A stretch of DNA of 64,000 bases from Gammaproteobacteria bacterium (GTDB taxonomy: Bacteria; Pseudomonadota; Gammaproteobacteria; UBA4575): contig OZ244849.1 in NCBI GenBank assembly GCA_965220875.1, forward strand, positions 585,791 through 649,790, read 5' to 3'. The position numbers were made by a program, and so were the translations under genes. This document shows positions 15,123-51,956 of this stretch, in pieces. Every line of letters starts with the position of its first letter. Positions within the stretch are counted from its first letter, which is position 1. A model generated the notes under the pieces. The model had not been told where the DNA came from. It made no database searches and saw only the letters and a list, made by a program, of their open reading frames with translations.

Positions 15123-15161
15123 TCGTTTGAAGATAGGCTGACTTCTTACTCAAGCTCCCAA

Positions 15162-16452: not shown

Positions 16453-17817
16453 ATGAAAAAAATACCGGTTAGCCGCTTTCTTGTATCCATCACTCTGCTG
16501 TCGCTGTCGGCTATGGGGACTGCATTTGCCAGCAGCGCAGAACTTCAGCCATCGCACGCAGATGAAAGCAAGGCCCGGGCACTGCTCAATAACCGGCAAT
16601 TTGACGAGGCTCTGACAATTTTACGCCCCCTGGCAAAAGCACATCCCGAGCACATCAACCTTCACTTCCTGCTCGGTCTGGCTGCCATCGAACGCTCCCG
16701 CCTGGCACAAACTTCGAAGGAAGAGCAGGAAGCCCTGCTGGATGAAGCCATTGCCACCCTGCACAGGCTACTGGTCAATCATCCAAAGCTTGAACGCGTA
16801 CGGCTTGAGCTCGCCCGTGCATTCTTCTACAAGAAAGAGGATTCCCTGTCGCGCAAGCATTTCAAGCGGGTGCTGGCTGGAGATCCACCGCCCCCCGTGG
16901 CGGAAAATATCCAGCGCTTCCTCAACGAAATCCGGGCCAGAAAGCGCTGGTCGGTGTATCTCGGCAGCACGCTCAAGCCCAGCTCCAACATCGGCCGAAA
17001 TTCCGAGACCGAGATCATCAACATTTTCGGTCTGCCCTTTCGCCGCGATGAGGTTGAAAAGAAGAAATCAGGGGTCGGTCTTTCTGTCTGGGCCGGTGGC
17101 GGCTACTGGCATCCCCTGGCCGAGCGCCTTCGGCTTCGCTTTGGCACCGATCTCGCCCGCGAGGAATACCCGGGAAAAGAGGAGGACCAGTCCTTCCTGG
17201 GAGTACACGCCGGCCCTGAATGGCTCGTCAATGCAAGAACCAGTGTCAGCCTGCTCGCCGATGCGCGGCATCTCTGGCGCATCACCTCACCCTATTACCT
17301 TGACTTCGGGGTACGCTCGGAAATCAAGCACCGGGTGAACCGGCGCCTCTGGCTGAAAGGGCAGGCCTCCTGGCATGACCGCGACTACCGGAAGCTCGAC
17401 TACCTGGATGGCTCGACCATGAATCTATCGTTGAACGGGACCTGGATCGCCTTGCCCACCGTGCGACTGGAGGGTGCCCTTGGCTATGCCGATGAGCACA
17501 CGAAATCCAAGACCTGGCGCCATGACACCCGCTGGGGCCGTATCGGCACGCTGGTGGCCCTGCCACGCGGCTTTACCGTGGGCGGCAGTGCCGAGATTCG
17601 AAGAACCCGCTACGAGGGGAACTGGTTCCCATTTACCAGCGGCGTCCCCCGCAAGGATCGCACCAATATCTATCGCGCCTCGGTATACAACCGGGCTTTC
17701 ACGCTGTACGGGTTCAGCCCTCAATTCGTGATCACCCACGAGGAAAAGGATACCAACTCGCAGGTCTACGGCTATGACAGCACCGGCGGCGAGATACGGT
17801 TCGTGCGCCAGTTCTAG
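16453..17817 (+). CDS. TPR plus DUF560-like outer-membrane beta-barrel; putative Slam surface-lipoprotein translocon
   Basis: 454 aa. Sec signal (MKKIPVSRFLVSITLLSLSAMGTAFA), about 150 aa of TPR-like helices, then about 300 aa with alternating beta-strand character ending in an aromatic C-terminus (RFVRQF). The size and architecture match Slam, and the gene sits next to a TbpB-like lipoprotein. DUF560 membership was not checked by HMM. Confidence 0.65.
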   Translation: MKKIPVSRFLVSITLLSLSAMGTAFASSAELQPSHADESKARALLNNRQFDEALTILRPLAKAHPEHINLHFLLGLAAIERSRLAQTSKEEQEALLDEAIATLHRLLVNHPKLERVRLELARAFFYKKEDSLSRKHFKRVLAGDPPPPVAENIQRFLNEIRARKRWSVYLGSTLKPSSNIGRNSETEIINIFGLPFRRDEVEKKKSGVGLSVWAGGGYWHPLAERLRLRFGTDLAREEYPGKEEDQSFLGVHAGPEWLVNARTSVSLLADARHLWRITSPYYLDFGVRSEIKHRVNRRLWLKGQASWHDRDYRKLDYLDGSTMNLSLNGTWIALPTVRLEGALGYADEHTKSKTWRHDTRWGRIGTLVALPRGFTVGGSAEIRRTRYEGNWFPFTSGVPRKDRTNIYRASVYNRAFTLYGFSPQFVITHEEKDTNSQVYGYDSTGGEIRFVRQF

Positions 17818-39394: not shown

Positions 39395-40501
39395 TCAGGC
39401 CGGGACGGCCCTCATGTTCCTGAGCATGGCAGGATTCACCGAGTTGGAAGGGGAAATTGCATTGGTCGGGCACTGATGCACGCAGGCCAGGCAGCGTATG
39501 CATTCATCCTCATCGATGTACAGCGAGTTGTAGTACAGGCCGGAAGTTCGTGCCGGGTTCACGCGCAGGTAATCCTCCACCCCGTCGTTCTTGTCGAGCA
39601 CGAAGCCCGATGCCTCGACAATGCAGTTTTGAATCGGCTTGACCAGCAGGCATTCATCACACAGCACGCATTTTGAATTGTCGATGACGGGCGCAGGCGA
39701 ACTCGCGTCCTCGAACTTGTCGTAATAGATCCGCCCGGGTGCCATGCCGCTGTCCACCAGCACGGACACCGCGGCATCCACCATCGGCGGGGGGCCGCAC
39801 AGGTAAGCCCGCGAGTTGCCGGTACCGGATTTTCCGCCCTGGACGTAGGCGCTTTCAAAATACTCGGTCACCAGCCCCCTCGCGCCGGGCCAGTCGCTGT
39901 CTTTCGGCTCCATCGAAAGAACGTTCGCGTATTCAAACCGGTAGTCTGCGTTCCATTTCCGCCTGATCGATTCGATCTCGTCCTGGCAGTAGAGGTCTGC
40001 CTGGGTCCTGGCCCCGTACAGGAAAAGGGCGTCCCGCTTCACGGACCGGTTCGCGGCATGTTCAAGGATGGCCTTGATCGCGCTCATGCCGCTGCCGCCG
40101 GCAATGCACACCATCGGGTCAGCGGAAGAATCGAGAACAAACTGCCCGAGCGGGCCGGTCAGGGTGATGGGCTCTCCGGTCCGGTCCGCCCTGAACAGCC
40201 ACCCTGAAAACTCGCCGCCGTGAATCAGTTTGACGAAGAACGTATGCTGGCCGGCCTCTTCGTTCTCGGGCGCCGTGGCAAACGAGTAGGCGCGCGGCTT
40301 GCTCAGGCTCGGTGTCGCCAGGATCGCATATTGCCCGGCCGTGCCGCTCAACGGGGTGGAGGCCGGATCGCACTGCACCACCAGTTCCATCGTGTCGTAC
40401 GTGAGTTTCCGGGTGCCGGTGATGACTCCCTGGCTGACCCGAACCCGGCTGTTTTGAATTCGAGGATCCGCCGCAGGCAGACTTCGAAATTGCACAGACA
40501 A
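39395..40501 (-). CDS. FNR-like FAD/NAD(P) oxidoreductase fused to a C-terminal 2x[4Fe-4S] ferredoxin
   Basis: RAYS FAD motif, GGSGMSAI NAD motif, CGPPPM. Two Cys clusters follow: CVLCDEC and CIRCLACVHQCP. Confidence 0.75.
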   Translation of the reverse strand: MSVQFRSLPAADPRIQNSRVRVSQGVITGTRKLTYDTMELVVQCDPASTPLSGTAGQYAILATPSLSKPRAYSFATAPENEEAGQHTFFVKLIHGGEFSGWLFRADRTGEPITLTGPLGQFVLDSSADPMVCIAGGSGMSAIKAILEHAANRSVKRDALFLYGARTQADLYCQDEIESIRRKWNADYRFEYANVLSMEPKDSDWPGARGLVTEYFESAYVQGGKSGTGNSRAYLCGPPPMVDAAVSVLVDSGMAPGRIYYDKFEDASSPAPVIDNSKCVLCDECLLVKPIQNCIVEASGFVLDKNDGVEDYLRVNPARTSGLYYNSLYIDEDECIRCLACVHQCPTNAISPSNSVNPAMLRNMRAVPA

Positions 40502-40515
40502 TCTAACCTCCTAGT

Positions 40516-42684
40516 CTAGGGTGTTGCCGGCGGGTCCTGCTCGATCTGCGCTTTTTCCACCTGTGCCAAGCATGAATAAAACGAGGGGCTCCAGCCGATA
40601 TCCGTCAACTCCTCCGATATCAGCGCATTCGCATTCACTCCCCCGGGCGTATTGCTGCCCTTGAACTGTTTCTGGGTACTGCAGACCCCGGGGAGCAGCC
40701 CGTCGATGATCACGGCATGGGCATAGGTCTCGCCACGGTCGTTGTAAAGGCGGCACAGGTCACCATCCTCGATGCCCCGCTCGAAGGCGTCTTCGGGACA
40801 CAGCTCCACGGTGGGCCTCGACATCATCGCCTGCAGCCTAGGCACGGACTGGAACGAATCACCGATGAAGTAATGCGGTGCGTTGCTCAGTACCTGCAGC
40901 GGGTACTTCTTCCTCCGTTCGTAGTTTTCCTGGCCTTCCTCTTCCGGCACGTACGTGGGCAGGGGGGACTGCCCCTGGTTCTTGACATCCTCGGACCAGA
41001 TGTTGATCTTGCCGGTCTCGGTCGGCCAGCCGTGTTTCAGCCGGTCCCGGTTCGGCGAGTCGACATTGCAGCGCATCCAGCCGTTCTGCTTGAGCCCTTC
41101 AAGCGTGATGCCCTCCATGCCCGGGTGTCCCTCGTCGCAGATGATTTCCTTGATCATGTCCTCGTCAGACTGCCTGAACGCATCCTCGTCATACCCCATC
41201 TTCCCGGCCAGCATCCTGAACAGTTCCGAGTTGCACACGCTCTCCCCGAGCGGCTTGATGCACGGCTGGCTCAGGTTGTAGATATAGTGACCCCAGGGGG
41301 CATGCAGGTCCCAGCGTTCCAGCTGCGTGTCGGCCGGCAGCACGATGTCTGCATACAGGCAGGTGTCGGTCCAGACCACGTCATGCACCGCCACGAAAAG
41401 ATCGTCACGCATCAGGCCCTTGCGCACGTTGTTGGTGTTCGGTGCACAGTTCGCGGGGTCCGAGTTGTATACGAAAAGTGACTTGATCGGCGGACTGAGC
41501 GAGTCCCCGTTCATGTCCTGGTTATCCGCCAGGGCCTTTCCGATCTGCACCATGTTGATGGTCCGCTTGGACGCCCGGTCGCCCAGGTCCGGCCGCTGCA
41601 GCTTGCCCAGTTGCAGCCGCATCCAGTTTTCCTCGCCGGTCCAGCTCAGGCAGCCCCCGCATTTTTCACGCCAGGCCCCGGTGATGCAGGGCAGCAGCAT
41701 GACAGCCCGGCAGGTCTGGCCCGAGTTCTTGTGCCGGTTGAGGCCCCAGCCGGTCCGGATATTCGTTTTCTTGCTCGCGGCAAACGCCAGGGCAAACTTT
41801 TCGATTTCCGCAGCCCCGATTCCCGTGATGCGGGCCACTTTCTCCAGCGGCCACTTCGGAAGTTCGTCCTGGATCAACTGCTCCCAGCCGTGCGTGTATT
41901 CCCGCAGGAACGCCTCGTCATGCAGCCCGGCGTCCACGATGAGTTTCATCATCCCCAGCGCCAGGGCCGCGTCCGTGCCCGGGCGTGGCTGGATGTGCCA
42001 GTCCGCAAACTCGGTGGTCCGGGTTTTCCTCGGATCCACCGCAACGATCGTGGCGCCCCGGTCCCTCGCCTCCTGGACGAACGGGATCAGGTGCACGCCC
42101 GTGCTGACGATGTTGTTCGCCCACAGAATCACCATGTCCGCATCCGGGATGTCTTCCGTACTCGGCCCGTCCGCCAGCCCGTAGGTGTAGATATGGGTCC
42201 AGATCCCGGCCCATGCACAGATGGACTGGTCAAGCCTTGCGGCTTCCATCCTGTTCCAGAACCGCTGGTCCATGCCCCAGAAATGGATCAGTCCCAGGGT
42301 GCCTGAATACGAATACGGCTGGACCGCTTCGGGTCCGTGCTCGTCGATGACCGACTTGAAATTGTCCGTGACCGTGTCCAGTGCCTCGTCCCAGGAGATT
42401 CTCTCGAATTTCGCGCCGGGCCCTTTCGGCCCGATTCGCTTGTGGGGGTACAGCACCCGGCTGTCGTTGTACACAAGATCCAGGTAATGGTTGACCTTGT
42501 TGCACAGGTAGCCCCGGGTAATGGGATTGCTGGGATCGCCTTCCACCCTGGTGGCCTTGCCGGTGTCCTCATTCACCGTGACGAGCATCGAGCAGCCGTC
42601 CGGGCAGTCATGGGGGCATACCACGTGGTGCTGGGTATGGCCGGGCGGAGGCTCGGGTCGGTCAGCGATCGTTTCCATGGCCAT
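40516..42684 (-). CDS. cytoplasmic molybdopterin (bis-MGD) oxidoreductase, MopB superfamily, unclassified
   Basis: 722 aa with no Tat signal. N-terminal Fe-S motif CPHDCPDGCS...C (Cx3Cx3C rather than CxxCxxxC). MGD-binding segments throughout. Confidence 0.8.
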   Translation of the reverse strand: MAMETIADRPEPPPGHTQHHVVCPHDCPDGCSMLVTVNEDTGKATRVEGDPSNPITRGYLCNKVNHYLDLVYNDSRVLYPHKRIGPKGPGAKFERISWDEALDTVTDNFKSVIDEHGPEAVQPYSYSGTLGLIHFWGMDQRFWNRMEAARLDQSICAWAGIWTHIYTYGLADGPSTEDIPDADMVILWANNIVSTGVHLIPFVQEARDRGATIVAVDPRKTRTTEFADWHIQPRPGTDAALALGMMKLIVDAGLHDEAFLREYTHGWEQLIQDELPKWPLEKVARITGIGAAEIEKFALAFAASKKTNIRTGWGLNRHKNSGQTCRAVMLLPCITGAWREKCGGCLSWTGEENWMRLQLGKLQRPDLGDRASKRTINMVQIGKALADNQDMNGDSLSPPIKSLFVYNSDPANCAPNTNNVRKGLMRDDLFVAVHDVVWTDTCLYADIVLPADTQLERWDLHAPWGHYIYNLSQPCIKPLGESVCNSELFRMLAGKMGYDEDAFRQSDEDMIKEIICDEGHPGMEGITLEGLKQNGWMRCNVDSPNRDRLKHGWPTETGKINIWSEDVKNQGQSPLPTYVPEEEGQENYERRKKYPLQVLSNAPHYFIGDSFQSVPRLQAMMSRPTVELCPEDAFERGIEDGDLCRLYNDRGETYAHAVIIDGLLPGVCSTQKQFKGSNTPGGVNANALISEELTDIGWSPSFYSCLAQVEKAQIEQDPPATP

Positions 42685-42703
42685 GCCTCCTTCTTACGTG
42701 TGA

Positions 42704-43882
42704 TCAGGCCGAAGCCATGCGTCGGGGTGTGAAATTCTCCAGTTCCTTGATCCCGCTTTCCTGGTTTTCCTTCCGGGTGAGTTCCAGCTCCGCAGCCGTG
42801 GCGTATTTTTCATCCCACTCCTTGAGCATGGGAACGATCACCTTGAAGAACAGGGGTGGGATCCATGCAATGACCGTCATCGTCAGGTACCCGAAGGGAC
42901 ACTGCGGATCGTCCTTGTATGCCCTGAGATCCTGGTAGCGGCTGTTGTCCGCATGATGCGCACCGTGACGGCCAAGATTGAGCAGAATCCAGTTGCCCCA
43001 GGCATTGTTGCTGGAAAAGGTCACGCGCGGAGTAATCGGCTGTCCTTTTTCCCGGACCAGCCCGTAGTGGGAGAAGAAGTTGAGTCCCTCCAGAATGAAT
43101 TTGGCATAGCAGATGGCCAGGAAGTAATACAGGAAGCAGACCCAGCCGCCGCCGGCCAGCACCAGTGCCATCACGATCCCGCCCCGCAGCCAGGCCTGCA
43201 CGATCCGGTTCTCCAGTGAGAGTACAGACTTGCCTGCGTCGTTCAGGCGCCTCTTCTCGACATCCCAGCCACTTTTCCACTGGGTCCAGGTCCCGACCGT
43301 CTGGAACTGGTAGAAGTGGCTACCCCGGATTGGCGTGACCGCATCATGCTCGGGATATCCCAGGTTCTTGTGATGCCCGTATACATGCTCGACGGCAAAG
43401 TTCGTTCCGAACATCAGGGCGAACACCAGCTCGCCGATCCTCGTGTCCACGGCGTCCTCGGTGCGTGAGACCAGTTCATGCCCCATGACGATGCCCTGCA
43501 CGCCCAGTGTGATCCCCATGGACAACGCCGCACCCGTATAGTGATACCAGGCGTTTTCACCGCGTGCGGCCAGGGCGTCATACCCGAACTGTTGTGCGAA
43601 GGCCCCGATGCCCAGCAGGTCAACCCCGCTGAACGCCCAGACGAAAGTGATCAGGGATACGAGCAGGAACAGGGATACCGTGTATATGATCCAGTCGTAG
43701 ATCCAGCCAAAGCTGTAACCGGGTTCCGAGTTATCCTCCTTGCTGAGGAGCTCGCCTCCGACCCCTATAATGAACATGAAACCGACGCCGAACCACATCC
43801 ACCAACCGCCCAAGACAAAGCTGACGGCGGTACCCAGGGTCACGATCCAGTTCAGCCACCCAAACTTCAGATATTTCCACAT
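42704..43882 (-). CDS. AlkB-family integral-membrane di-iron hydroxylase (alkane 1-monooxygenase-like)
   Basis: Histidine boxes GHELVSR, EHVYGHHKNLG and LGRHGAHHADNSRYQDL, plus the NFFSHYGL (NYxEHYGL) motif. SD GAGGG before MWKYLKF. 20-bp gap to the Mo-enzyme gene. Confidence 0.8.
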   Translation of the reverse strand: MWKYLKFGWLNWIVTLGTAVSFVLGGWWMWFGVGFMFIIGVGGELLSKEDNSEPGYSFGWIYDWIIYTVSLFLLVSLITFVWAFSGVDLLGIGAFAQQFGYDALAARGENAWYHYTGAALSMGITLGVQGIVMGHELVSRTEDAVDTRIGELVFALMFGTNFAVEHVYGHHKNLGYPEHDAVTPIRGSHFYQFQTVGTWTQWKSGWDVEKRRLNDAGKSVLSLENRIVQAWLRGGIVMALVLAGGGWVCFLYYFLAICYAKFILEGLNFFSHYGLVREKGQPITPRVTFSSNNAWGNWILLNLGRHGAHHADNSRYQDLRAYKDDPQCPFGYLTMTVIAWIPPLFFKVIVPMLKEWDEKYATAAELELTRKENQESGIKELENFTPRRMASA

Positions 43883-44067
43883 AGCCGTACCCTCAAACCA
43901 GTCAATGACACACTTCCACAGCGCCAAAACCATGTTCTCGCCGCTTTTCTTGCACCTTCCTGGTCTGATAGCAGGGTGATCAGCACCCTTCTCAAGATCT
44001 GTCGATTTATTTTAGGCGCTACTTTCATCGTAGCAACGCGGTGCCAGCAATGTCAAATTCAGCATGG

Positions 44068-44108
44068 ATATACTAAGATTAGTTTTCTCCTGAAAACTGT
44101 ATACTAAT
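44068..44108. promoter_or_regulatory. direct repeat ATATACTAA x2 (31-bp spacing) in the divergent intergenic region
   Basis: GATATACTAAG at 44068-44077 and GTATACTAAT at 44099-44108, in the AT-rich gap between the AlkB operon and the ABC transporter. Confidence 0.3.
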
Positions 44109-44149
44109 AACTTGTCGAGTACGGCCAAGAATTCTTATATGCAGAGTAC

Positions 44150-44965
44150 TTGTCAAATGGAGGGGTTCTGATGCCCGAAGACCTGCCCGCTGGCAAAGAG
44201 GCGCTTTTGGAAATCCATGAGATTTCCCTGTCGTTCAAGGGAGTGAAGGCGCTCTCCAACGTCAGCATGAAGGTCCAGCAGGGCGAAATCTGCGCGCTCA
44301 TCGGCCCGAACGGTGCGGGAAAGAGTTCACTGCTCAATGTGATCAACGGGGTCTACCGGCCGCAACATGGCGAAGTGGTCTTCGACGGCAGGCATTTCCA
44401 GAAAATCACCCCGTTTGATGCGGCGCGGCGCGGGATCGGAAGGACGTTCCAGCACAATGCGCTGTTTGAAAGGCTGACGGTCCTGGACAACATCCTGGCA
44501 GGCCTTGCGCGTCACGGGAAAACCACGTTCTGGGAGAACATATTCCATATCGGACGCGACCGCGCCGAAAACCGGCAATTCCTTGCCTGGGCCGGCAAGG
44601 TCATCACCTTCCTCAAGCTCGAGGAACACGCCGGCGCCATCGTTTCGACCCTCCCGTTCGGCATCCAGAAACGGGTGGACCTTGCACGGGCGCTGGTCTC
44701 GGAGCCCAGGCTGCTGCTGCTCGATGAACCCATGGCGGGAATGAACCAGGATGAGAAGCAGGAAATGAGCCGCATCGTCTCGGAGGTGAACTCGCATTTC
44801 AAGACCACGATCGTGCTCATCGAACATGATATCGGTATCGTCATGGGGCTGGCGCATCGCATCGTGGTACTGGACTACGGCAGCAAGATTGCCGATGGCA
44901 TGCCCGAACAGGTACGAAACGACCCGGGCGTGATCAAGGCTTACCTGGGAGAAGTGTATGAATAA
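44150..44965 (+). CDS. HAAT-family ABC transporter ATP-binding protein (LivG-like)
   Basis: GPNGAGKSS Walker A and a LivG-type insertion. Confidence 0.85.
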   Translation: MSNGGVLMPEDLPAGKEALLEIHEISLSFKGVKALSNVSMKVQQGEICALIGPNGAGKSSLLNVINGVYRPQHGEVVFDGRHFQKITPFDAARRGIGRTFQHNALFERLTVLDNILAGLARHGKTTFWENIFHIGRDRAENRQFLAWAGKVITFLKLEEHAGAIVSTLPFGIQKRVDLARALVSEPRLLLLDEPMAGMNQDEKQEMSRIVSEVNSHFKTTIVLIEHDIGIVMGLAHRIVVLDYGSKIADGMPEQVRNDPGVIKAYLGEVYE

Positions 44966-44981
44966 CAGGACGGGGGCGTAG

Positions 44982-45857
44982 GTGTTTCTTGAGGTGCTGC
45001 TGGGGGGGCTGCTTGCCGGAGTGATGTACTCCTCCGTGGCGCTCGGCTTCGTCCTCATCTACAAGGCGTCGGGCGTGTTCAATTTCGCCCAGGGTTCCAT
45101 GGTGCTGTTCACCGCGCTGATGTATGTGACGTTTGTGGAGGCAGGCATTCCGTTCTGGATCGCGTTGCTCATCGTGATGGTCGTCATGGTGATCTGTGCC
45201 GTGCTCATCGAGCGGATGATGCTTCGCCCCATGGCGAATCGTGACCCGATGATACTGTTCGTGGCCACCCTGGGGCTGAGTTTCATGATCGAAGGAATTG
45301 CGCAGCTGGCGATGGGCACCGATGTGCATATCCTGGAGCTCGGTGTGGCGGACGGCACCCTGCAGATCGGTGACCTGTGGTTGAGCGAGTTTGACCTGTT
45401 TGCAACCGCCATGGCCATTCTCATGGTGGTCGTCATTTCGTTCGTCTTCAACACCACGCGCATCGGCATCTCGCTGCGCGCGGTGGCCGACGATGTGCTG
45501 GCGGCGCAATCGATCGGCATCAAGCTTCCGCAGGTGTGGCGGATTGTGTGGAGCGTGGCAGGATTTGTGGCCCTGGCCGCCGGGCTTCTCTGGGGAGCGC
45601 GCCAGGGGGTCCAGTTTTCGCTGACCCTGTCCGCCCTCAAGGCGTTACCGGTGCTCATCATCGGGGGCTTCTCGTCCATGATCGGCGCCATCGTGGCAGG
45701 CCTGCTGGTCGGGGCGACCGAAAGCCTGGCCGACTTCTACCTGGGCCCCATCCTCCGGGGCAGCGTATCCGCCTGGTTTGCCTACATCCTGGCTGTATTC
45801 TTTCTCCTGATCAAGCCTGCCGGCCTGTTCGGTGAACGCGAGATCGAACGGGTCTGA
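44982..45857 (+). CDS. HAAT-family ABC permease (LivH-like)
   Basis: 291 aa polytopic protein with LivH-like N-terminus (YSSVALGFVLIYKASGVFNFAQG). Confidence 0.85.
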   Translation: MFLEVLLGGLLAGVMYSSVALGFVLIYKASGVFNFAQGSMVLFTALMYVTFVEAGIPFWIALLIVMVVMVICAVLIERMMLRPMANRDPMILFVATLGLSFMIEGIAQLAMGTDVHILELGVADGTLQIGDLWLSEFDLFATAMAILMVVVISFVFNTTRIGISLRAVADDVLAAQSIGIKLPQVWRIVWSVAGFVALAAGLLWGARQGVQFSLTLSALKALPVLIIGGFSSMIGAIVAGLLVGATESLADFYLGPILRGSVSAWFAYILAVFFLLIKPAGLFGEREIERV

Positions 45858-45860
45858 GCC

Positions 45861-46934
45861 ATGCCGGAGATTCAGACCTCACCGCGCGCGGACATGCTCC
45901 CGCTCTCCCAGCGTTCCGGCCTGGTCAAGCCGGGCATCATCGGGGCACTGATGATCGCTGCACTGGCCGTGCCGCTCAGCTTCAACGATTACTGGATCAA
46001 CTCCATCATGATCCCGATGCTGGTGATGGGCATCGCGGGCGTCGGCCTCAATTTGCTGATGGGATTCACCGGGTGCGTCTCGATCGGCTCGGCGGCCTTC
46101 ATGGCAGTGGGGGCCTTCTCGGCCTACAACCTGCTGTTGCGGGTACCGGTGCTTCCCCTGCCGGTTGTGATCATCCTGGCCGGCCTGATCGCAGCGGTAT
46201 TCGGTGTCCTGTTCGGACTGCCAAGCTTGCGGATCAAGGGGTTCTACCTCGCGGCATCCACCCTCGGGGCACAGTTTTTTTTCGAGTGGCTGTTCACCAA
46301 TTTTTCCTGGTTCTGCAACGATAACCTGTCCTTGACCATCACCGCTCCGCGACTTGAGCTCTTCGGCATGGACCTCAAGTCGGTGCATGGCCGCTACATG
46401 ATCGTCAGCGTGACCACCCTTGCGCTGGTTGCGCTCGCGTACAGCATCGTGCGCAGCCGCATTGGCCGGGAATGGATTGCGGTAAGCGACATGGAGACCT
46501 CGGCCACCGTCATTGGCATCAAGGTGCGCGCCCGCAAGCTTCTGGCATTTGGCATCAGTTCCTTTTACTGCGGCATCGCGGGTGTGCTCTGGGGATTCTG
46601 CTACCTGCAGACGAGCAATGCCCACTCCTTTGATCTTGACAAGTCCTTCGAGATCCTGTTCATCGTGATCATAGGCGGCACGGCAAGCATATTCGGAAAC
46701 TTCATCGGCGCCGCCTTTATCGTGCTGACACCGATTTTCCTCAACCTGGCTGTGGTCGGCCTTGGACTGACCGAACATGTGAACATCGGAATCACTACAA
46801 ATCTGCAGCGAGTGCTATTCGGTGCTATGATTGTTTACATCCTGATCAAAGAGCCGGATGGCCTTTACAAGTTGCTTCAACGGGCTGCAACTGCTTTGAG
46901 TGGAGCGTGCAGGCGGCTTCGCGCTACAGCGTGA
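45861..46934 (+). CDS. HAAT-family ABC permease (LivM-like)
   Basis: 357 aa polytopic protein; the ORF immediately follows the first permease. Confidence 0.85.
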   Translation: MPEIQTSPRADMLPLSQRSGLVKPGIIGALMIAALAVPLSFNDYWINSIMIPMLVMGIAGVGLNLLMGFTGCVSIGSAAFMAVGAFSAYNLLLRVPVLPLPVVIILAGLIAAVFGVLFGLPSLRIKGFYLAASTLGAQFFFEWLFTNFSWFCNDNLSLTITAPRLELFGMDLKSVHGRYMIVSVTTLALVALAYSIVRSRIGREWIAVSDMETSATVIGIKVRARKLLAFGISSFYCGIAGVLWGFCYLQTSNAHSFDLDKSFEILFIVIIGGTASIFGNFIGAAFIVLTPIFLNLAVVGLGLTEHVNIGITTNLQRVLFGAMIVYILIKEPDGLYKLLQRAATALSGACRRLRATA

Positions 46935-47108
46935 TCTCACGCCGGGTGCCGAATCCGTCCAGACCGGTACGGATCCATCGGCCTTTGGGGATAGGTTGTT
47001 CAGGAACAAGAATCGCAGGAGGTGATGCCATGCATATTTAGGTCTGCACCCGCTCAGGAGCAGGCCTTGAATAAGTGCACAAAATAATAACTATAGGAGG
47101 AAATTACA

Positions 47109-48452
47109 ATGTATTTACGTCAACTAAGCTATGCGCTGCTTGCCGCCGTACTGGCTTCGGCGGGCTTGCAGACGGCCTTTGCAGCCGGTGCGCATGAAGG
47201 GGAGCAGTTCTATCCCCTGTTTACGTACCGTACCGGACCTTACGCCAATGTGGGGACCTCGATCGTAGCCGGGCAAAAGGACATGCTGGATTACCTCAAC
47301 GAAACCGAGGGTGGCGTGAATGGAGTTCTCAACTACATGGTGGAGTGTGAAACTTCATACGACATCGACAAGGGCATCGAGTGCTTCGACCGTTACGTCG
47401 GGGGACACCAGGGTGCACCCACCGCTACCATCACGGGGATGTCATCGGGACTCTTCGCGGCGACAGTAGAGAGAAATCGCAAACACAAGATGCCGCACAT
47501 GACACCCGGCGGCGGTACCGCAACGGCCATTGACGGGCGATTCAACGAATACCAGTTCTCGGTGATGTTTGACTACTGGAGAGAAGCGCAGATTGTGGTC
47601 GAGTATATCGCCCAGCGCCTCGGGGGTCATGACAAGCTCAAGGACCAGGTGATCGTGACGCTGTACCATGATTCCGGATACGGCCGAGAAACCATCACCC
47701 CGATGAAGATGCTGTCCGAGCAGTACGGATTCAAGGACGTGCAGATTCCGGTGGCACATCCGGGAATCCAGCAGGAGGCCCAGTGGCAGCGCATTCGCAA
47801 CGAAAAGGCCGACTGGGTATTCTTCCGCAGCTGGGGGGCAATGACCCCGGTAGGCATCAAGACGGCCAAGCGCACGGGCTTTCCGGTCGACCACATCATC
47901 GGTGACATCTGGGCGACTTCGGAAGACGACGTACGCCCGGCAGGCGATGCCGCGATCGGCTACACCGGAGTCAACATCTTCCCGCCGGGAACCGATTATG
48001 AGCTTCTCAAGAGAATCAAGGAAACCCTGTATGACAAGGGCAAGGGCGACCTGAAGGAAATGGAGCGGTTCGGCACGGTCTACTACAACTTCGGCGTGAT
48101 CACGTCGCTGATCTATTCCGAGGTCCTGAGAACCGGCCACACGAAGTTTGGAAACAGGCCGATTACCGGTGAAGAAGCCAAGTGGGCCTATGAGAACCTG
48201 AACATCGATCAAAAACGGCTCGAAGATATCGGTGCTGTCGGGCTGCTGGCCCCGCTGAAGCTCTCGCGCTGTAACCATCAAGGTGAGAGCATCCAGGCGA
48301 AGGTCATCCAGTGGGCCGGCGACGGATGGGATTCAACGGACTGGATCGAGATCGACACACAGCTGTTCGTGCCCATCTTCACTGCCAAGGCAGAGGAGCT
48401 TGCGAAAGAGCAGGGCGTCCCGAAACGCGACCTGCCCGAGTGCGAAGTGTAA
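47109..48452 (+). CDS. periplasmic substrate-binding protein (type I PBP, LivK/amide-binding-like), unusually long at 447 aa
   Basis: Signal MYLRQLSYALLAAVLASAGLQTAFA. The gene sits inside the HAAT transporter cluster. Confidence 0.8.
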   Translation: MYLRQLSYALLAAVLASAGLQTAFAAGAHEGEQFYPLFTYRTGPYANVGTSIVAGQKDMLDYLNETEGGVNGVLNYMVECETSYDIDKGIECFDRYVGGHQGAPTATITGMSSGLFAATVERNRKHKMPHMTPGGGTATAIDGRFNEYQFSVMFDYWREAQIVVEYIAQRLGGHDKLKDQVIVTLYHDSGYGRETITPMKMLSEQYGFKDVQIPVAHPGIQQEAQWQRIRNEKADWVFFRSWGAMTPVGIKTAKRTGFPVDHIIGDIWATSEDDVRPAGDAAIGYTGVNIFPPGTDYELLKRIKETLYDKGKGDLKEMERFGTVYYNFGVITSLIYSEVLRTGHTKFGNRPITGEEAKWAYENLNIDQKRLEDIGAVGLLAPLKLSRCNHQGESIQAKVIQWAGDGWDSTDWIEIDTQLFVPIFTAKAEELAKEQGVPKRDLPECEV

Positions 48453-48471
48453 GTGAACAGCGGGCACCGTC

Positions 48472-49224
48472 TTGAGCACTGGCGATTTTCTCAAGGTTGA
48501 AAATATCCAGGTTCACTACGGGCAGGCAATACTAGCCCTGCAGGATGTAACGATAGTCGTCGAACAGGGATCAATCGTGTCCCTGTTCGGCGCCAACGGC
48601 GCCGGAAAAACCACGACCCTCAAGGCAATCTCCAAGCTCCTGGGACAGGAGCGCGGTGAAATCACCAAGGGCAGAATCACCTGGCAGGGTGAGTCGATCG
48701 AGCGCTTTTCCGCCTCCGACCTCGTAGCCAAGGGCATCGTCCAGGTGCTGGAAGGCAGGCATGTGTTTCCTCAACTGACCGTAGAGGAAAACCTGATGGC
48801 CGGCGCCTTCGTGCGCCAGCCAAACCGTGCCAGGATGGCTTCAGACCTGGAACAGGTGTACGAGTGGTTTCCACGCCTCAAGCTGCGGCGCAAAAGCCGG
48901 GCGGGACTCGCTTCGGGCGGTGAGCAGCAAATGCTCGCGATTGGTCGCGCGCTCATGACAAAGCCCATCCTGGTCCTGCTGGACGAGCCCTCAATGGGAC
49001 TGGCACCGGTAATCATCCAGGAGATCTTCGAAATCATCAAGTCGATGAACCGGGAGAATAACGTCAGTTTTCTGATCGCCGAGCAGAACATCAACCTTGC
49101 CATGAAGTATGCCAACTACTGCTACGTGTTGGAAAACGGAAATGTCGCCGTGTCCGGAAAAGCCGACGAGCTGTCCGTGCGCGACGACATCAAGGAATAT
49201 TATCTCGGCTCGGGCAATGCCTGA
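48472..49224 (+). CDS. HAAT-family ABC transporter ATP-binding protein (LivF-like)
   Basis: GANGAGKTT Walker A, LSGGEQQMLAIGRAL signature. Confidence 0.85.
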   Translation: MSTGDFLKVENIQVHYGQAILALQDVTIVVEQGSIVSLFGANGAGKTTTLKAISKLLGQERGEITKGRITWQGESIERFSASDLVAKGIVQVLEGRHVFPQLTVEENLMAGAFVRQPNRARMASDLEQVYEWFPRLKLRRKSRAGLASGGEQQMLAIGRALMTKPILVLLDEPSMGLAPVIIQEIFEIIKSMNRENNVSFLIAEQNINLAMKYANYCYVLENGNVAVSGKADELSVRDDIKEYYLGSGNA

Positions 49225-49317: not shown

Positions 49318-50361
49318 TCAGCTTGACTGAAGCGCCTCAGACAAAAAACCGTTTATCAGGTCAAAGTCCTCCTGGGCCAGACCCAGCATGCCAAAATGGC
49401 CCCACAGGGTGGGGACCTGCCTCAGTTCACTGCCCGGAATCATCTCCTGTTCATATCTGCAGTCCGTGAGCGGGATGAACATGTCCTGCGTGAATGCAAT
49501 GACAAAGACTTTCGCCCTGATGGACCCCAGCGTGTCCTTCAGGCTTTTTCCCGAAACCGCGCACACGTCCCCCCGTTTCCATTTCGAGGCCATGCACAAC
49601 AGGTTGTTCGGATCCATGGGCTTGAACCAGGTTTCCCAAAAACCGCACAGGTAATCGTCCAGCGAGGCAATCCCCAGATCGGTCCACTTTTCCTGCCGGT
49701 AGAATTCCGTGCAGTTGCCCATCAGGGCAAACACGTGTGCAAGCCGCTTCAGGCCCAGTTCCACTGCATGGGGCTGCGTGTACCGGCCGTGTTCCCAGGC
49801 CGGATCAGACTTTAGCGCCTCACAGAACACCTCCACGTACAGGGAGTCATGCGGGGTGGTTCTGGCAGTCCCCCCTATCGGGGCGGCACGCTTGACCATA
49901 TCCGGATACCTCACGCACCATTCGTACGTCTGCTGCGCACCCATGGACCAGCCAAGCACCAGGTCTATGCTTTTTACGCCGAACTTTTCGGTCAGCAGCC
50001 GGTGCTGTGCACGAACGTCATCCCCGATCGAGATTTCCGGAAAGTCAGGACCCTCATCGGGCGGGGGAGCATTATGAGGCGAGGTCGACAAGCCGCTGCC
50101 CAGCTGGTTCGGTACGACGATGAAGTATTTCTCGGGATCCAGCGCCAGGCCCTTTCCGATGTATTTTTCCATGGCCTTGTTGGTCCCTGAAAACATGACC
50201 GTAAACACGATGGCATTGGTCTTTTCCGGATTCAGTTCGCCGAAACACGAATACGCCAGCTGGCAGTTTGCAAGCGTCCTGCCGCATTCAAGCTGGAAAT
50301 CGCCGAGTTCAAACAGTGAATACGGGCCGTGGTTTTCCTGGGAATAATACTCGTTTTCCAC
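49318..50361 (-). CDS. MetX-like alpha/beta hydrolase (homoserine O-acetyltransferase family)
   Basis: GWSMGAQQ nucleophile elbow, 347 aa. Confidence 0.7.
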   Translation of the reverse strand: MENEYYSQENHGPYSLFELGDFQLECGRTLANCQLAYSCFGELNPEKTNAIVFTVMFSGTNKAMEKYIGKGLALDPEKYFIVVPNQLGSGLSTSPHNAPPPDEGPDFPEISIGDDVRAQHRLLTEKFGVKSIDLVLGWSMGAQQTYEWCVRYPDMVKRAAPIGGTARTTPHDSLYVEVFCEALKSDPAWEHGRYTQPHAVELGLKRLAHVFALMGNCTEFYRQEKWTDLGIASLDDYLCGFWETWFKPMDPNNLLCMASKWKRGDVCAVSGKSLKDTLGSIRAKVFVIAFTQDMFIPLTDCRYEQEMIPGSELRQVPTLWGHFGMLGLAQEDFDLINGFLSEALQSS

Positions 50362-50543
50362 TTGAGAGCCCCCTCAACCTTGCATGGATAATTGTTGTAA
50401 GTAGTTGTCTGGCAGGCAGGCAGCGCCTGGAAAGGCAAGGCGGCCACGTACGTCTGCCGTACGATGCATGTTGGTTGACAATTAGTCACACAGCATTACC
50501 ATTGAATCAATCTAGTGTCAACTCAAAGCATGGTTATAAGAAA

Positions 50544-51956
50544 ATGTCAAAACAAATTCACATGAATGCTTTCACCATGTGCTCCATCTGCTTTCATTCG
50601 AAGGGCCAATGGAAACACCCCCTTGATCAATCCTCGCTGGGCTACAAGGACGTGAACTACTGGGTTGATATCGCCAAGACCCTGGAACGCGGCTGCTTTG
50701 ACAGCCTGTTTCTGGCGGATGTGCATGGGACCTACAACGTCTACAAGGGGTCGCGCGATACCGCAGTGCGGCACAGCACACAAATCCCCAGCAACGACCC
50801 TACCCTAGTGATCTCCGCAATGGCCTATGCCACCAGGCATATCGGTTTTGCCTGCACATTCTCCACGAGTTATTTCCCCCCCTACCAGACAGCCAAGCTG
50901 TTCTCCACCCTGGACCACCTGACAAACGGGCGCATCGCGTGGAATATCGTCACCTCCTACCTGCCGGACGCCAACGAGAATTTCGGCATCGGTGAACAGA
51001 TGGAGCATGACGAACGCTATGACCGGGCGGATGAATACATGGACGTGGTGTACAAGCTGTGGGAACACTCATGGGAAGAGGACGCCGTCATCCGTGATGT
51101 CGAGAAAGACATCCACACCGACCCTGCCAAAGTGCATGAGATCAATCACGAGGGCAAGTACTTCAATGTCCCGGGACCGCACATGTGCGAACCGTCCCTG
51201 CAACGCACGCCCGTCCTGTTTCAGGCGGGCGGTTCAGGCCGGGGGATCGAGTTTGCGGCACGCCACGCCGAGGCAATCTTTGCGATCCACCCGAACATGG
51301 AGGTCTCCAAGAATATCATCCGGTCCACCCGCGAAGTCATCGCCAGGCAGGGCCGCAACCCGAACGAGGTAAAGATCTTTCCCGGCATTTCCGTAATCGT
51401 CGCACCGACTGACGAAGAAGCCCGTCTGAAATTCGAGACCTGCAAGAAATACAGAAGCCCCGAAGGGGCTCTGGCACTGTACTGCGGCTGGGTGGGGGTG
51501 GACCTGTCCAAGATCGATGTCAATGAAAAGCTGGCAAATGCCGAGACCAATGCAATCCAGGGGCTGCTGAGTTATTTCGCTGAAGCGGATCCGGACCGCG
51601 ATTGGACCCTGCAGGAAGCGGCCGAGTTCATCTCGATCGGCAGTGTGATGCCAAAATTCATCGGCAGCCCGGCAACGGTTGCAGACGAACTGGAACGCTG
51701 GATGGAAGTGACAGACTGTGACGGGTTCAACCTTGTCGTGGCCAACCACCCCACGGGGTATATCGATTTCGTGAACCTGGTCGTGCCCGAACTGCAGCGA
51801 CGCGGCCGCATGCGCACGCATTACGATACGAGCACCTTGCGTGAACACTATTTCGGCACCGGGCGCCGGCGGCTTTCGAAGGACCACCAAGCGTTTCGGT
51901 CATTGCCCAAGTGGAAACTGTCTGGCGAACCCAGGAAAGCGGCAGCTACAGCCTGA
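50544..51956 (+). CDS. LLM-class flavin-dependent monooxygenase (NtaA/SnaA/DszA/LadA family)
   Basis: About 470 aa starting MSKQIHMNAF. TIM-barrel luciferase-like pattern. The track ORF is falsely extended upstream to 50268. Confidence 0.75.
   Translation: MSKQIHMNAFTMCSICFHSKGQWKHPLDQSSLGYKDVNYWVDIAKTLERGCFDSLFLADVHGTYNVYKGSRDTAVRHSTQIPSNDPTLVISAMAYATRHIGFACTFSTSYFPPYQTAKLFSTLDHLTNGRIAWNIVTSYLPDANENFGIGEQMEHDERYDRADEYMDVVYKLWEHSWEEDAVIRDVEKDIHTDPAKVHEINHEGKYFNVPGPHMCEPSLQRTPVLFQAGGSGRGIEFAARHAEAIFAIHPNMEVSKNIIRSTREVIARQGRNPNEVKIFPGISVIVAPTDEEARLKFETCKKYRSPEGALALYCGWVGVDLSKIDVNEKLANAETNAIQGLLSYFAEADPDRDWTLQEAAEFISIGSVMPKFIGSPATVADELERWMEVTDCDGFNLVVANHPTGYIDFVNLVVPELQRRGRMRTHYDTSTLREHYFGTGRRRLSKDHQAFRSLPKWKLSGEPRKAAATA

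Follow-up and report, generated by a model that had tools for sequence, protein, structure and literature searches.

The window analysed here is a 64,000-nucleotide (64-kb) stretch of DNA, and at its centre of interest lie three co-directional genes encoding a membrane di-iron oxygenase, a molybdoenzyme (MopB_A) and a flavoprotein reductase (FNRfer). The host is a marine gammaproteobacterium that has not been cultured and whose genome measures about 2 Mb. Numbers such as L001 denote comparison loci. The features considered are:

42704..43882, minus strand: gene for an AlkB/XylM-like membrane di-iron oxygenase (392 aa, PF00487)
40516..42684, minus strand: gene for MopB_A, a MopB-superfamily Mo/W-bis(pyranopterin guanine dinucleotide) enzyme (722 aa, three Pfam domains)
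39395..40501, minus strand: gene for FNRfer, an NAD(P)H oxidoreductase (368 aa, TTG start)
43883..44149: divergent intergenic region with the operon promoter (promoter scan)
44150..49224, plus strand: LIV-type ABC importer, comprising an ATPase, two permeases, a 447-aa Peripla_BP_6 binding protein and a second ATPase (Pfam)
49318..50361, minus strand: MekB/Cg0961-type alpha/beta-hydrolase, MetX-like esterase subfamily PRK07581 (NCBIfam NF005757, 448 bits, above cut-off)
50268..51956, plus strand: NtaA/DmoA-family FMN-dependent luciferase-like monooxygenase (TIGR03860, 543 bits against a cut-off of 280)

The arrangement of the first three genes supports their reading as an operon-like unit, based on short gaps, strong Shine-Dalgarno sites and a single conserved promoter. 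An earlier note on this DNA had described co-directional genes with gaps of 20 and 14 bp; the shared direction and the 14-nt gap stand, but the first gap measures 19 nt. AGGAGG Shine-Dalgarno sites lie upstream of both the MopB_A and the FNRfer genes, in the second case 6 nt ahead of the TTG start, and for MopB_A the Shine-Dalgarno spacing favours an ATG at 42678, two codons inward, as the probable true start. The oxygenase start is placed at 43882 because homologues are 392-394 aa long and the upstream ATG is missing in L010, and a 409-aa reading of this open reading frame was rejected on the same grounds. The promoter scan places TTGACA-N18-TACGAT on the minus strand at 44056..44027, and the -35 and -10 elements are kept in L008, L009 and L010 together with a downstream block, TAGCGCCTAAAA. 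On the operon strand, the promoter and terminator scans gave no match in the gaps between the genes; the only other promoter-like match on the minus strand (39858-39829, 9/12) and a terminator-like match (42327-42315) both fall inside coding sequence and within the shuffle chance level. All three genes are under purifying selection, with dN/dS values of 0.06-0.16 (about 0.1 for the oxygenase).

By homology, the oxygenase belongs to the Fd/FNR-dependent AlkB/XylM branch, where it is divergent, and is not a canonical AlkB. It carries an FA_desaturase domain (PF00487, E 3e-20) and the motifs HELVSR, EHVYGHH, NFFSHYG and LGRHGAHH, which occupy the same four positions as in the AlkB-AlkG-AlkT system (P. 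putida GPo1; FtAlkB 8f6t, 8sbb), and residues 106-354 match solved FtAlkB (8f6t) at E 5.5e-39. The idea that it is a bona fide AlkB with all three His boxes does not survive alignment, since box 1 reads HELVSR against HELGHK in solved AlkB, with Ser in place of the second His; eight of the nine AlkB iron-ligand His residues are kept (alignment to 8f6t and 8sbb). The HYG motif is there as described, but the Glu that precedes it in AlkB is also replaced by Ser. The box-1 Ser variant is conserved throughout the window oxygenase's clade and in a second clade. All nine His ligands of AlkB are reported to be invariant and indispensable (PMC10110569), and the absence of one of them suggests that the chemistry of this enzyme may differ from hydroxylation. 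None of the NCBIfam models, including that for alkane monooxygenase, matched at E <= 0.01, and identity to annotated plasmid alkB genes is about 29-35%, equal to the xylM level.

The donor side of the oxygenase points the same way. The rubredoxin and rubredoxin reductase of the AlkB-AlkG-AlkT system have no counterpart in the window, where a tblastn rubredoxin query came back empty; the earlier note had likewise seen neither of them, nor a regulator, next to the operon, and indeed no regulator is adjacent. Instead, an FNR-type gene (39395..40501) shares the oxygenase's operon, although its Fe-S domain is of the 2x[4Fe-4S] rather than the [2Fe-2S] type, and across the AlkB-like family at large an FNR-type reductase partner occurs in 41 of 73 loci. 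XylM/XylA of the TOL plasmid pWW0 similarly joins a membrane di-iron hydroxylase to an FNR-type NADH:acceptor reductase, XylA having a [2Fe-2S] cluster; XylM is 31-33% identical to the window oxygenase over about 67% of its length, no closer than AlkB, and XylMA differs in having no Mo enzyme partner. The closest systems are Fd-FNR-AlkB (ferr_ferrR_AlkB; Polaromonas naphthalenivorans pPNAP01 PNAP_RS20840), of the same branch with 35-36% identity over about 88% of the length (35.6% to the Polaromonas fusion), and, grouped with it, the unfused FNR and AlkB-like pairs of Thalassolituus and Marinobacter. These share with the window oxygenase the motif series HELxHR / EHVYGHH / xHYG / RHxxHH and an FNR-type flavoprotein donor in place of rubredoxin, with FNR cores 41-45% identical. 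The window system departs from them in the Ser residues at the box-1 His and at the Glu before HYG, in a reductase that has no N-terminal plant-type [2Fe-2S] domain but ends in a 2x[4Fe-4S] domain, in lacking an AlkJ/AlkH/AlkK-type downstream set, and in having a MopB gene between oxygenase and reductase. The fused Fd-FNR-AlkB class is catalytically active, with activity reported for the fused class only (PMC8918992).

MopB_A, in turn, belongs to the MopB superfamily without falling into a curated family. Its Molybdop_Fe4S4, Molybdopterin and Molydop_binding domains all score above their Pfam cut-offs, yet no curated NCBIfam model reaches its own. The earlier description of a 722-aa enzyme with a CPHDCPDGC cluster motif and no Tat signal is borne out: the N-terminus shows no twin-arginine motif, and CPHDCPDxC is the invariant form across 17 homologues. 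The full [4Fe-4S] motif is C23-x3-C27-x3-C31...C61, with all four Cys invariant, and its Cx3Cx3C spacing reflects a one-residue insertion relative to the CxxCxxxC of acetylene hydratase; an Asp directly follows the second cluster Cys in that enzyme, and invariant D26 and D29 flank C27 here but in a different register. Cys156, invariant in the 17 homologues as well, is by alignment the putative metal ligand, and corresponds to Cys141 of acetylene hydratase and Ser147 of DorA, although a profile alignment to acetylene hydratase shifts by two residues. The best solved relative is acetylene hydratase from Pelobacter acetylenicus (2e7z), a weak match at 183 bits with a single sequence and 232 bits with a profile. 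The two have in common a cytoplasmic location, monomer size, an N-terminal [4Fe-4S] cluster and, putatively for MopB_A, a Cys metal ligand, and differ in cluster spacing and in the dedicated NAD(P)H reductase partner of MopB_A.

Three familiar identities were considered for MopB_A and rejected. Assimilatory nitrate reductase models score far too low (NasC 215.7 bits against a cut-off of 1100, NasA 126 against 1000), as does formate dehydrogenase (Fdh-alpha, 241.5 against 666). Formate dehydrogenases have a Sec/Cys-His dyad in the active site, and the ligand position of MopB_A reads SIC156-A157-W. BisC/DorA/TorA enzymes resemble MopB_A as cytoplasmic, soluble MopB reductases, and a BisC-family enzyme holds the equivalent place in sister loci, but TIGR00509 gives 215.6 bits against 1017.6, an FeS cluster motif is present where those enzymes have no such cluster, and Cys stands at the position of DorA Ser147. 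On DMSO-reductase models generally, MopB_A scores no better than on those for formate dehydrogenase or acetylene hydratase.

The third protein, FNRfer, combines FAD_binding_6, NAD_binding_1 and Fer4 domains. That its C-terminus is a 2x[4Fe-4S] ferredoxin instead of a [2Fe-2S] domain is confirmed by eight Cys (CxxCxxCx8C ... CxxCxxCxxxCP) that are invariant in 26 homologues, and a Fer2 domain was not found. Its core resembles the oxygenase reductases BenC, MmoC and CarAd and is 45% identical to the XylA-type reductase downstream of the AlkB-like gene in L029; assignment to the class IB-type oxygenase reductases (BenC/XylA/MmoC) was nevertheless rejected, as the plant-type [2Fe-2S] domain is missing. 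A tblastn search found no second FNR within the 64-kb window, and all six loci with the complete trio are without a [2Fe-2S]-FNR, whereas in most non-trio loci such a gene immediately follows the AlkB-like gene. Since the trio lineage has no XylA-type [2Fe-2S]-FNR, FNRfer is most likely the reductase of the Mo enzyme and the di-iron oxygenase alike, which makes the dual role among the earlier suggestions (electrons to one enzyme, the other or both) the plausible one.

Comparative genomics shows that the pairing of oxygenase and molybdoenzyme is a pathway link and not an accident. Five further loci (L001, L002 and L008-L010, 58-95% identity) have the trio in synteny, and a MopB gene lies within about 8 kb of the oxygenase gene in 20 of 28 lineages of the oxygenase clade, compared with 0 of about 45 loci of more distant oxygenase relatives (<=37% identity). 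The pairing occurs in several different gene orders, its MopB partners come from three MopB lineages, BisC-type included, and two further AlkB-like clades (L091, L088) adjoin MopB_A too. The earlier note had argued that the pairing is no artifact because every protein carries its full cofactor-motif set; the pairing is real and conserved, but the motif set of the oxygenase is incomplete. Pairing of an AlkB-like oxygenase with a molybdoenzyme has no described counterpart.

MopB_A and FNRfer also occur together without an AlkB-like gene, among housekeeping genes (L005-L007, L087, L089, L090, L097), in many marine genomes on contigs of 31-63% GC, and in the marine clade a dedicated NAD(P)H reductase gene always follows MopB_A. 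The pair is thus an autonomous module, and in the operon an oxygenase gene seems to have joined a two-component molybdoenzyme that already existed. The oxygenase of sister lineages has its own XylA-type [2Fe-2S]-FNR, accompanied by a BisC-type MopB and a MekB-type esterase, in the order AlkB-like / 2Fe2S-FNR / MopB_B / esterase (MopB_B of L029 matches TIGR00509 at 955 bits).

The genes around the operon give some indication of its substrates. In the window, the LIV-type importer, whose binding protein matches PDB 4ru0 at 456 bits, is conserved beside the trio in L002, where it is co-directional, and in L008, L009 and L010. The MekB-type esterase (best PDB matches 5e4y, 361 bits, and 5d6o, 327 bits) recurs in 10 of 28 oxygenase-clade lineages, often directly downstream of the MopB gene. 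The luciferase-like monooxygenase is similar to LadA (3b9n, 487 bits) and to the DMS monooxygenase DmoA (6ak1, 468 bits); its open reading frame starts at 50268, and similarity to solved enzymes begins at about residue 93, near position 50544. Its position is taken by a type-I BVMO in L008 and L009, and tblastn found no BVMO within the 64-kb window. Elsewhere, L011 and L012 have an SBP56 methanethiol oxidase (MTO) and an SCO1/MauG fusion divergent to the module, and SQR is found there and in L029. FCSD occurs in L030, L039 and L052, and rhodanese-MBL in L052 and L091, the latter locus also having a SoxB-like gene. Compared with the DMS to methanethiol to sulfide route (DmoAB, MtoX with SCO1/MauG, SQR/PDO), sister loci have mtoX-SCO1/MauG, SQR, FCSD and PDO-rhodanese directly adjoining the AlkB-like/FNR/MopB module. 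Together with the DmoA/LadA-type monooxygenase, BVMO and MekB-type esterase, these neighbours suggest organosulfur or ketone catabolism, and the neighbourhoods fit better with MopB_A acting reductively, by removal of an oxygen atom, than with the two-step oxidation first envisaged.

We propose that the operon may serve to degrade small oxidised sulfur or carbonyl compounds, and we assign a probability of roughly 35% to the proposal as a whole: an operon with a shared FNRfer, in which reduction of a sulfoxide-type compound is followed by hydroxylation of the resulting thioether. An oxygenase gene would have come to lie in front of the MopB_A and FNRfer pair, with FNRfer reducing both enzymes. 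Electrons would pass from NAD(P)H through the FAD of the FNR module and two [4Fe-4S] clusters to the [4Fe-4S] cluster of MopB_A and on to Mo ligated by Cys156. To judge from the neighbouring genes only, MopB_A would then take the oxygen atom off a small oxidised sulfoxide-type substrate, with DMSO or a methylsulfinyl compound as the leading candidate, and the di-iron enzyme would act on the reduced thioether by hydroxylating one of its methyl or alkyl C-H bonds, giving a product that collapses to thiol and aldehyde. A DmoA/LadA-type monooxygenase or BVMO, the MekB-type esterase and the ABC importer would belong to the same catabolic island.

Several observations count against this organosulfur proposal. 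Known S-/N-oxide reductases have a Ser metal ligand, and the Cys of MopB_A weakens the reading, as does the loss from the oxygenase of a His ligand that is reported to be indispensable in AlkB. The LIV-type importer suggests a polar, charged solute and not DMS or DMSO. Sulfur genes lie near only about 5 of 20 MopB-linked lineages, and none of the sulfur-oxidation genes, including mtoX, SQR and PDO, is found within the 64-kb window, where the DmoA-family monooxygenase is the point of likeness to the DMS route. Ketone or alkyl catabolism accounts just as well for the BVMO, MekB-type esterase, SDR and acyl-CoA synthetase genes nearby. Among DMS and DMSO pathways in the literature searched, none is described with an AlkB-like oxygenase or the MopB_A lineage.

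A wider form of the organosulfur proposal, which we regard as doubtful, concerns Methylophaga thiooxydans, in which the first DMS-degrading enzyme is unknown (PMC6548844). During growth of this organism on DMS, a 'fatty acid desaturase' is induced about 136-fold and an 'NAD-binding oxidoreductase' about 51-fold. The oxygenase clade could represent an unrecognised membrane thioether (DMS-type) monooxygenase or demethylase, its MopB partners cytoplasmic NAD(P)H-driven sulfoxide (DMSO-type) reductases, and the missing M. thiooxydans enzyme a candidate of the same kind. If so, abundant uncultured marine Gammaproteobacteria would possess an aerobic route from DMSO through DMS to methanethiol and formaldehyde.

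Unlikely, though the best placed of the alternatives, is a hydrocarbon, ketone or alkyl-chain island in which the AlkB-like enzyme hydroxylates an alkyl substrate whose carbon skeleton also undergoes a non-sulfur step at MopB_A, for example an acetylene-hydratase-like hydration or a water-dependent hydroxylation, with FNRfer keeping the enzyme reduced. A subterminal route would run through an SDR, a BVMO or luciferase-like monooxygenase and the MekB-type esterase, from ketone to ester to alcohol and acid. Relatives of 32-36% identity do sit in classic alkane-type operons, such as that of Polaromonas (AraC, GMC alcohol dehydrogenase, aldehyde dehydrogenase, acyl-CoA ligase, OmpW) and a Ca. Thiodiazotropha locus (GMC, ALDH, glyoxylate shunt), and the Fd-FNR-AlkB class is active (PMC8918992). 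The BVMO adjoins the esterase in L008 and L009, the esterase best matches 5e4y and 5d6o, the luciferase-like monooxygenase is slightly closer to LadA than to DmoA, and L168 holds hydantoinase/acetone-carboxylase-like and FMO-like genes. Acetylene hydratase is also the best solved relative of MopB_A, which has invariant Asp residues on either side of the second cluster Cys, but this similarity is weak, and the BisC-type MopB in the same module and the recurrent MTO, SQR, FCSD and PDO neighbours would be left unexplained. We know of no cytoplasmic MopB enzyme of this type in aerobic hydrocarbon or ketone pathways, and of no dedicated reductase partner for acetylene hydratase.

We also think it unlikely that the genes share a reductase and nothing else, the AlkB-like gene having been inserted upstream of an unrelated MopB_A-FNRfer pair (for instance a general cytoplasmic S-/N-oxide scavenger or an oxyanion reductase) to borrow FNRfer, with unrelated substrates. 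Many marine genomes of roughly 1.6-2.1 Mb do have a stand-alone pair surrounded by housekeeping genes, with no AlkB-like homologue among the matches listed, and every trio locus is without a XylA-type reductase; the window MopB is moreover 67-68% identical to stand-alone copies as against 58-63% to AlkB-linked copies of other clades. However, MopB_A-FNRfer still adjoins the oxygenase where that enzyme has its own [2Fe-2S]-FNR (L025, L028, L029, L032, L014, L027), the oxygenase operon in these same loci holds a second MopB (BisC-type or A'), and a one-off capture is hard to square with linkage in 20 of 28 lineages when none of about 45 loci of relatives shows it.

Improbable in our view is a Mo enzyme that serves as electron source, with MopB_A oxidising a co-substrate or product with water (sulfite to sulfate, or thioether to sulfoxide) and the ferredoxin domain of FNRfer relaying the two electrons either to NAD(P)+ or to the di-iron oxygenase, so that monooxygenation would need little or no NAD(P)H. 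MopB enzymes run in either direction, luciferase-like monooxygenases of related families release sulfite, and the tight three-gene coupling, a partner with a ferredoxin domain and the sulfur-oxidation neighbours would suit such a role. The similarity of MopB_A to SoeA/Ddh-type enzymes is, however, at superfamily level only, BisC-type partners are to our knowledge known only as reductases, and a P450 stands in for MopB in L003, L004 and L019, a poor fit to an electron donor.

The reading of MopB_A as a common assimilatory nitrate reductase or formate dehydrogenase that lies beside alkB in this genome by chance, as the Cys at the metal-ligand position and a cytoplasmic location like that of Nas and FdhF might have allowed, is effectively refuted by scores far below the cut-offs, by C156-A157 in place of the Cys/Sec-His dyad, by the absence of nitrate, nitrite and formate genes near the operon, and by linkage kept across 20 of 28 lineages. 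NAD(P)H-dependent assimilatory nitrate reductases, which pair a MopB catalytic subunit with a separate flavoprotein, are nonetheless alike in outline, with a cytoplasmic path from NAD(P)H through flavin and FeS to Mo-bisPGD with a Cys ligand; the window system is set apart from them by those scores, by the lack of nitrate and nitrite genes close by and by a reductase that joins an FNR core to 2x[4Fe-4S].

The three genes that encode the AlkB-like oxygenase, the molybdoenzyme and the reductase form an operon. ORF analysis of the window finds three minus-strand reading frames in 39395..43882, separated by gaps of 19 nt and then 14 nt:

42704..43882, minus strand: gene 1, AlkB-like oxygenase (392 aa, start at 43882)
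40516..42684, minus strand: gene 2, molybdenum (Mo) enzyme of the MopB_A lineage
39395..40501, minus strand: gene 3, FNRfer reductase

A 409-aa reading of gene 1 is an artefact, since homologues are 392-394 aa and the upstream ATG is missing from the closely related locus L010. AGGAGG precedes both downstream genes. The annotated ATG of the Mo enzyme (42684) lies 1 nt past this site and the next ATG (42678) 7 nt past; Shine-Dalgarno spacing thus favors a start two codons later, at 42678, probably giving a protein of 720 aa, and the enzyme's 99%-identical cluster representative is 719 aa. The TTG start of the reductase at 40501 lies 6 nt beyond its Shine-Dalgarno site. In a promoter scan, sigma-70-like matches on the operon strand group directly 5' of gene 1, the best being TTGACA-N18-TACGAT (44056..44027); a weaker match lies within the reductase gene (39858..39829), and none lies in the intergenic gaps. 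Because the region's three matches fall within the range of shuffled sequences (mean 1.7, s.d. 1.4), the scan by itself carries little weight. Relatives at 84-95% identity conserve the upstream -35/-10 pair. Neither gap contains an intrinsic-terminator-like site; the operon strand has one weak match, inside the Mo-enzyme gene (42327-42315), and the region's three terminator-like matches are no more than shuffles give (mean 4.0). Just 3' of the -35/-10 pair, within 43883-44149, the block TAGCGCCTAAAA is invariant in the window, L008, L009 and L010, and the direct repeat TTAGTATA, whose two copies start ~35 bp from each other, is confined to the window and L010; both are candidate operator sites. 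No regulator gene adjoins the operon, and an Rfam gathering scan of the whole window returned no riboswitch or other RNA, including the Moco riboswitch.

The linkage between oxygenase and Mo enzyme is conserved. The trio also occurs in L001, L008, L009, L010 and L002, with oxygenase identities of 84-95%, and of 58%; L008-L010 are chromosomes of ~2.0-2.1 Mb from uncultured Gammaproteobacteria. When the oxygenase family at ≥43% identity is grouped into 28 lineages (90% clusters), the fetched flanks contain a MopB gene in 20, an FNR-type gene in 21 and an esterase in 10, versus no MopB gene at any of ~45 loci of oxygenase relatives at ≤37% identity, a survey that bears out the AlkB-MopB pairing proposed in the earlier note. 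The genes take three arrangements: the co-directional trio; a MopB_A-FNRfer pair divergent from, or convergent with, the oxygenase; and a second module of AlkB-like, [2Fe-2S]-FNR, MopB_B and esterase genes. MopB_B, which scores 955 bits on TIGR00509, is an S/N-oxide reductase of the BisC family and lacks an FeS cluster. In L030, L039 and L052, a third MopB lineage, A' (38-39% identity), adjoins the esterase. MopB_A also has AlkB-like neighbors from two other clades, in L091 (33% identity) and L088 (28% identity); no consistent MopB link was found in the L091-type clade, as L168 and the locus of the homologous protein P0263 have no MopB gene. At L003, L004 (10001-12506) and L019 (8001-10503), a P450 follows the AlkB-like gene (51% identity to the window's, HELTHR) after 17 nt and replaces MopB; close by, these loci also encode a luciferase-like monooxygenase, an amidohydrolase, two PQQ dehydrogenases, a GST and a Rieske protein. 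L014, L027 (two adjacent AlkB-like genes) and L033 carry tandem or duplicated paralogues of the HELTHR and HELIHR types, adjoining [2Fe-2S]-FNR and MopB_A-FNRfer.

Gene 1 matches only FA_desaturase in Pfam and no NCBIfam model, and it aligns with the solved AlkB 8f6t at E 5.5e-39. The claim that it is a bona fide AlkB with all three His boxes fails at box 1: HELVSR sits opposite HELGHK of solved AlkB, so the second histidine is serine and the box is not canonical. The HYG motif reads NFFSHYG, with serine in place of the glutamate beside that histidine in AlkB. Guo et al. describe the nine histidines of AlkB as invariant and indispensable, and place E281 near Fe1 (PMC10110569). A pseudogene or decaying oxygenase is ruled out by a dN/dS of ~0.1 against four orthologues, and by the recurrence of the T-H to V-S replacement in another clade (~50% identity), with intermediate clades retaining HELTHR. 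A compensating ligand for the lost histidine was considered and set aside: the clade shows the specific changes R151E, T164V and G189H, and none of them could be assigned to the metal site from sequence. An AlkB-type enzyme under purifying selection with eight of nine 'indispensable' histidines is of mechanistic interest whatever its substrate.

Among annotated plasmid genes, gene 1 is equidistant from alkB and xylM (29-35%), and matches best a 752-aa Polaromonas protein (plasmid pPNAP01) annotated as 'fatty acid desaturase' (35.6% over 88%). This protein is a ferredoxin-FNR-AlkB fusion, a class noted by Nie et al. (PMC4021335) and reported to be catalytically active (PMC8918992), and its operon encodes AraC, GMC alcohol dehydrogenase, acyl-CoA ligase, aldehyde dehydrogenase and OmpW proteins. 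The AlkB-like genes of Thalassolituus, Marinobacter, Pseudomonas and Ca. Thiodiazotropha directly adjoin a [2Fe-2S]-FNR gene that is not fused to them. The fusion match and these FNR-paired relatives place gene 1 in the Fd/FNR-dependent branch of the AlkB/XylM family.

The Mo enzyme has three MopB domains in Pfam, the motif CPHDCPDGC and no twin-arginine leader. It reaches no curated NCBIfam family, scoring 261 bits against a cut-off of 778 for DmsA/YnfE, 242 against 666 for Fdh-alpha, 216 against 1100 for NasC and 216 against 1018 for BisC. Its closest solved relative is acetylene hydratase (183 bits with a single sequence, 232 with a profile), relative to which its cluster motif has a one-residue insertion; perchlorate, DMSO and TMAO reductases and formate dehydrogenases follow at similar scores. 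C23, C27, C31, C61 and C156 are invariant among homologues, and C156 falls opposite Cys141, the W ligand of acetylene hydratase, and opposite DorA Ser147 in alignments; known S-oxide reductases carry a serine ligand where MopB_A has cysteine. More than 571 metagenome stretches carry members of the very large CPHDCPD family. Soil homologues of MopB_A (~40% identity) have no FNRfer partner, and their heterogeneous neighborhoods give no functional clue.

Genes 2 and 3 form an autonomous two-component molybdoenzyme: in many genomes of marine Gammaproteobacteria the MopB_A-FNRfer pair stands by itself amid housekeeping genes, on contigs of 31-63% GC, and the long contigs with a stand-alone pair appear to coincide with none that bear a listed AlkB-like homologue. 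Gene 3 has an oxygenase-reductase core like those of BenC, MmoC and CarAd, and the eight cysteines of its C-terminus are invariant in 26 homologues. The [2Fe-2S]-FNR found elsewhere 3' of the oxygenase is missing in all six trio loci, and that reductase, as found in non-trio loci, shares 45% identity with the FNR core of gene 3; from these observations we infer that gene 3 serves both the Mo enzyme and the oxygenase. In the low-GC marine clade of L092-L094 and L096, MopB_A is preceded by an FNRfer homologue of much greater length (565-581 aa), which points to an extra domain.

The trio's neighbors in the window include a LIV-type ABC importer with a 447-aa binding protein (47109..48452), a MetX-like hydrolase (subfamily PRK07581) that among solved structures is closest to 5e4y and 5d6o, the MekB/Cg0961 acetyl-esterases, and an FMN monooxygenase of the NtaA/DmoA family that resembles LadA and the DMS monooxygenase DmoA to about the same degree. 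L008 and L009 have a type-I Baeyer-Villiger monooxygenase (BVMO) in place of this FMN monooxygenase, and L001 has the trio without the transporter. A Pfam census of 137 neighbor proteins from sister loci counts luciferase-like monooxygenases (8), Pyr_redox_2 (7), AMP-binding (4-5), SDR (4), ACAD-like (4), SBP56 (2), CCP_MauG (2) and FCSD (2) proteins. GC content is 0.57-0.59 over 42000-52000, the island of oxygenase, ABC transporter, esterase and monooxygenase, versus ~0.62-0.66 on either side, which fits a mobile or recently acquired catabolic island.

The conserved linkage suggests that oxygenase and Mo enzyme are coupled at the level of a pathway. We favor, with a probability of roughly one in three, a chemistry in which the Mo enzyme, driven by NAD(P)H, would abstract an oxygen atom from a small oxidised substrate of the sulfoxide type, the di-iron enzyme would act as a C-H hydroxylase on the reduced product, and the rest of the island would provide uptake and handle downstream products. 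Several points speak against this reading: sulfur-oxidation genes are absent from the window, MopB_A has cysteine where known S-oxide reductases have serine, an importer of this kind suggests a polar solute, and the BVMO, esterase, SDR and acyl-CoA-ligase neighbors suit a ketone or alkyl route equally well. Those same neighbors, together with the likeness to acetylene hydratase, would accommodate an island for hydrocarbon or ketone breakdown whose Mo enzyme resembles a hydratase; weighed beside the S/N-oxide reductase of the second module, we consider this doubtful, if the best of the alternatives. It is also unlikely that the oxygenase and Mo enzyme have the reductase in common and nothing more. 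In its favor is the autonomy of the MopB_A-FNRfer pair; on the other side is the recurrence of MopB genes beside the oxygenase family. That the Mo enzyme acts as an electron donor would fit the tight coupling of the three genes and is improbable; in L003, L004 and L019 a P450 takes the place of MopB. A Nas or Fdh enzyme neighboring by chance has a negligible likelihood, as both identities are ruled out by the curated cut-offs and by the lack of the active-site dyad. An 'intra-aerobic' oxygen supply by chlorate or NO dismutation was rejected, as cld and nod genes are absent and the cytoplasmic enzyme is linked to NAD(P)H.

The favored sulfoxide reading has a far-reaching form, in which the Mo enzyme and the AlkB-like enzyme would convert DMSO to DMS and then to methanethiol and formaldehyde; we regard this form as speculative and rather unlikely. 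Sulfur genes do occur in sister loci. L011 (2059-6229) and L012 (3523-7705) contain a methanethiol-oxidase-type cluster of SBP56, an SCO1/SenC-MauG fusion and DUF169, directly divergent from an operon of AlkB-like, [2Fe-2S]-FNR and BisC-type MopB genes; its SBP56 and SCO1/SenC-MauG genes match the methanethiol-oxidase arrangement of Eyice et al. (PMC5739008). SQR-like genes are present in L011 and L012, where they lie downstream, and in L029, FCSD in L030, L039 and L052, and rhodanese-metallo-beta-lactamase (PDO-like) genes in L052 and in L091, which also has a SoxB-like gene. [quoted passage not shown] The two may instead be an AlkB-like/FNR oxygenase pair; the matches of a search with the L091 AlkB-like protein included no Methylophaga entry. 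The sulfur-gene neighbors and the DMS-induced transcripts make directly testable a long-standing gap, the primary DMS-degrading enzyme of organisms without dmoA and ddhA.

The superfamilies of the parts are known; their combination and wiring are new. A limited search of the literature turned up no account of a pairing between an AlkB-like oxygenase and a MopB enzyme, which is weak evidence of novelty. If the linkage is functional, it represents a new wiring of a membrane di-iron oxygenase, in which one NAD(P)H-flavin-[4Fe-4S] reductase is common to the oxygenase and a cytoplasmic molybdoenzyme, and O2-dependent C-H hydroxylation is paired with Mo-dependent oxygen-atom transfer on one substrate family. 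Since the module is spread widely among uncultured marine Gammaproteobacteria with small genomes of 31-63% GC, it may be a quantitatively relevant sink.

Among further homologues, P0338 (474 aa) is a fusion of two domains, a metallo-beta-lactamase (PF00753) and an AlkB-like FA_desaturase. Elsewhere in the window, a stretch of low third-position GC (12841-17817) contains a 612-aa ORF without a Pfam match (13284..15122, plus strand) followed by a Slam surface-lipoprotein assembly modifier (16453..17817, plus strand), which could form a Slam-dependent surface lipoprotein pair, perhaps acquired horizontally.
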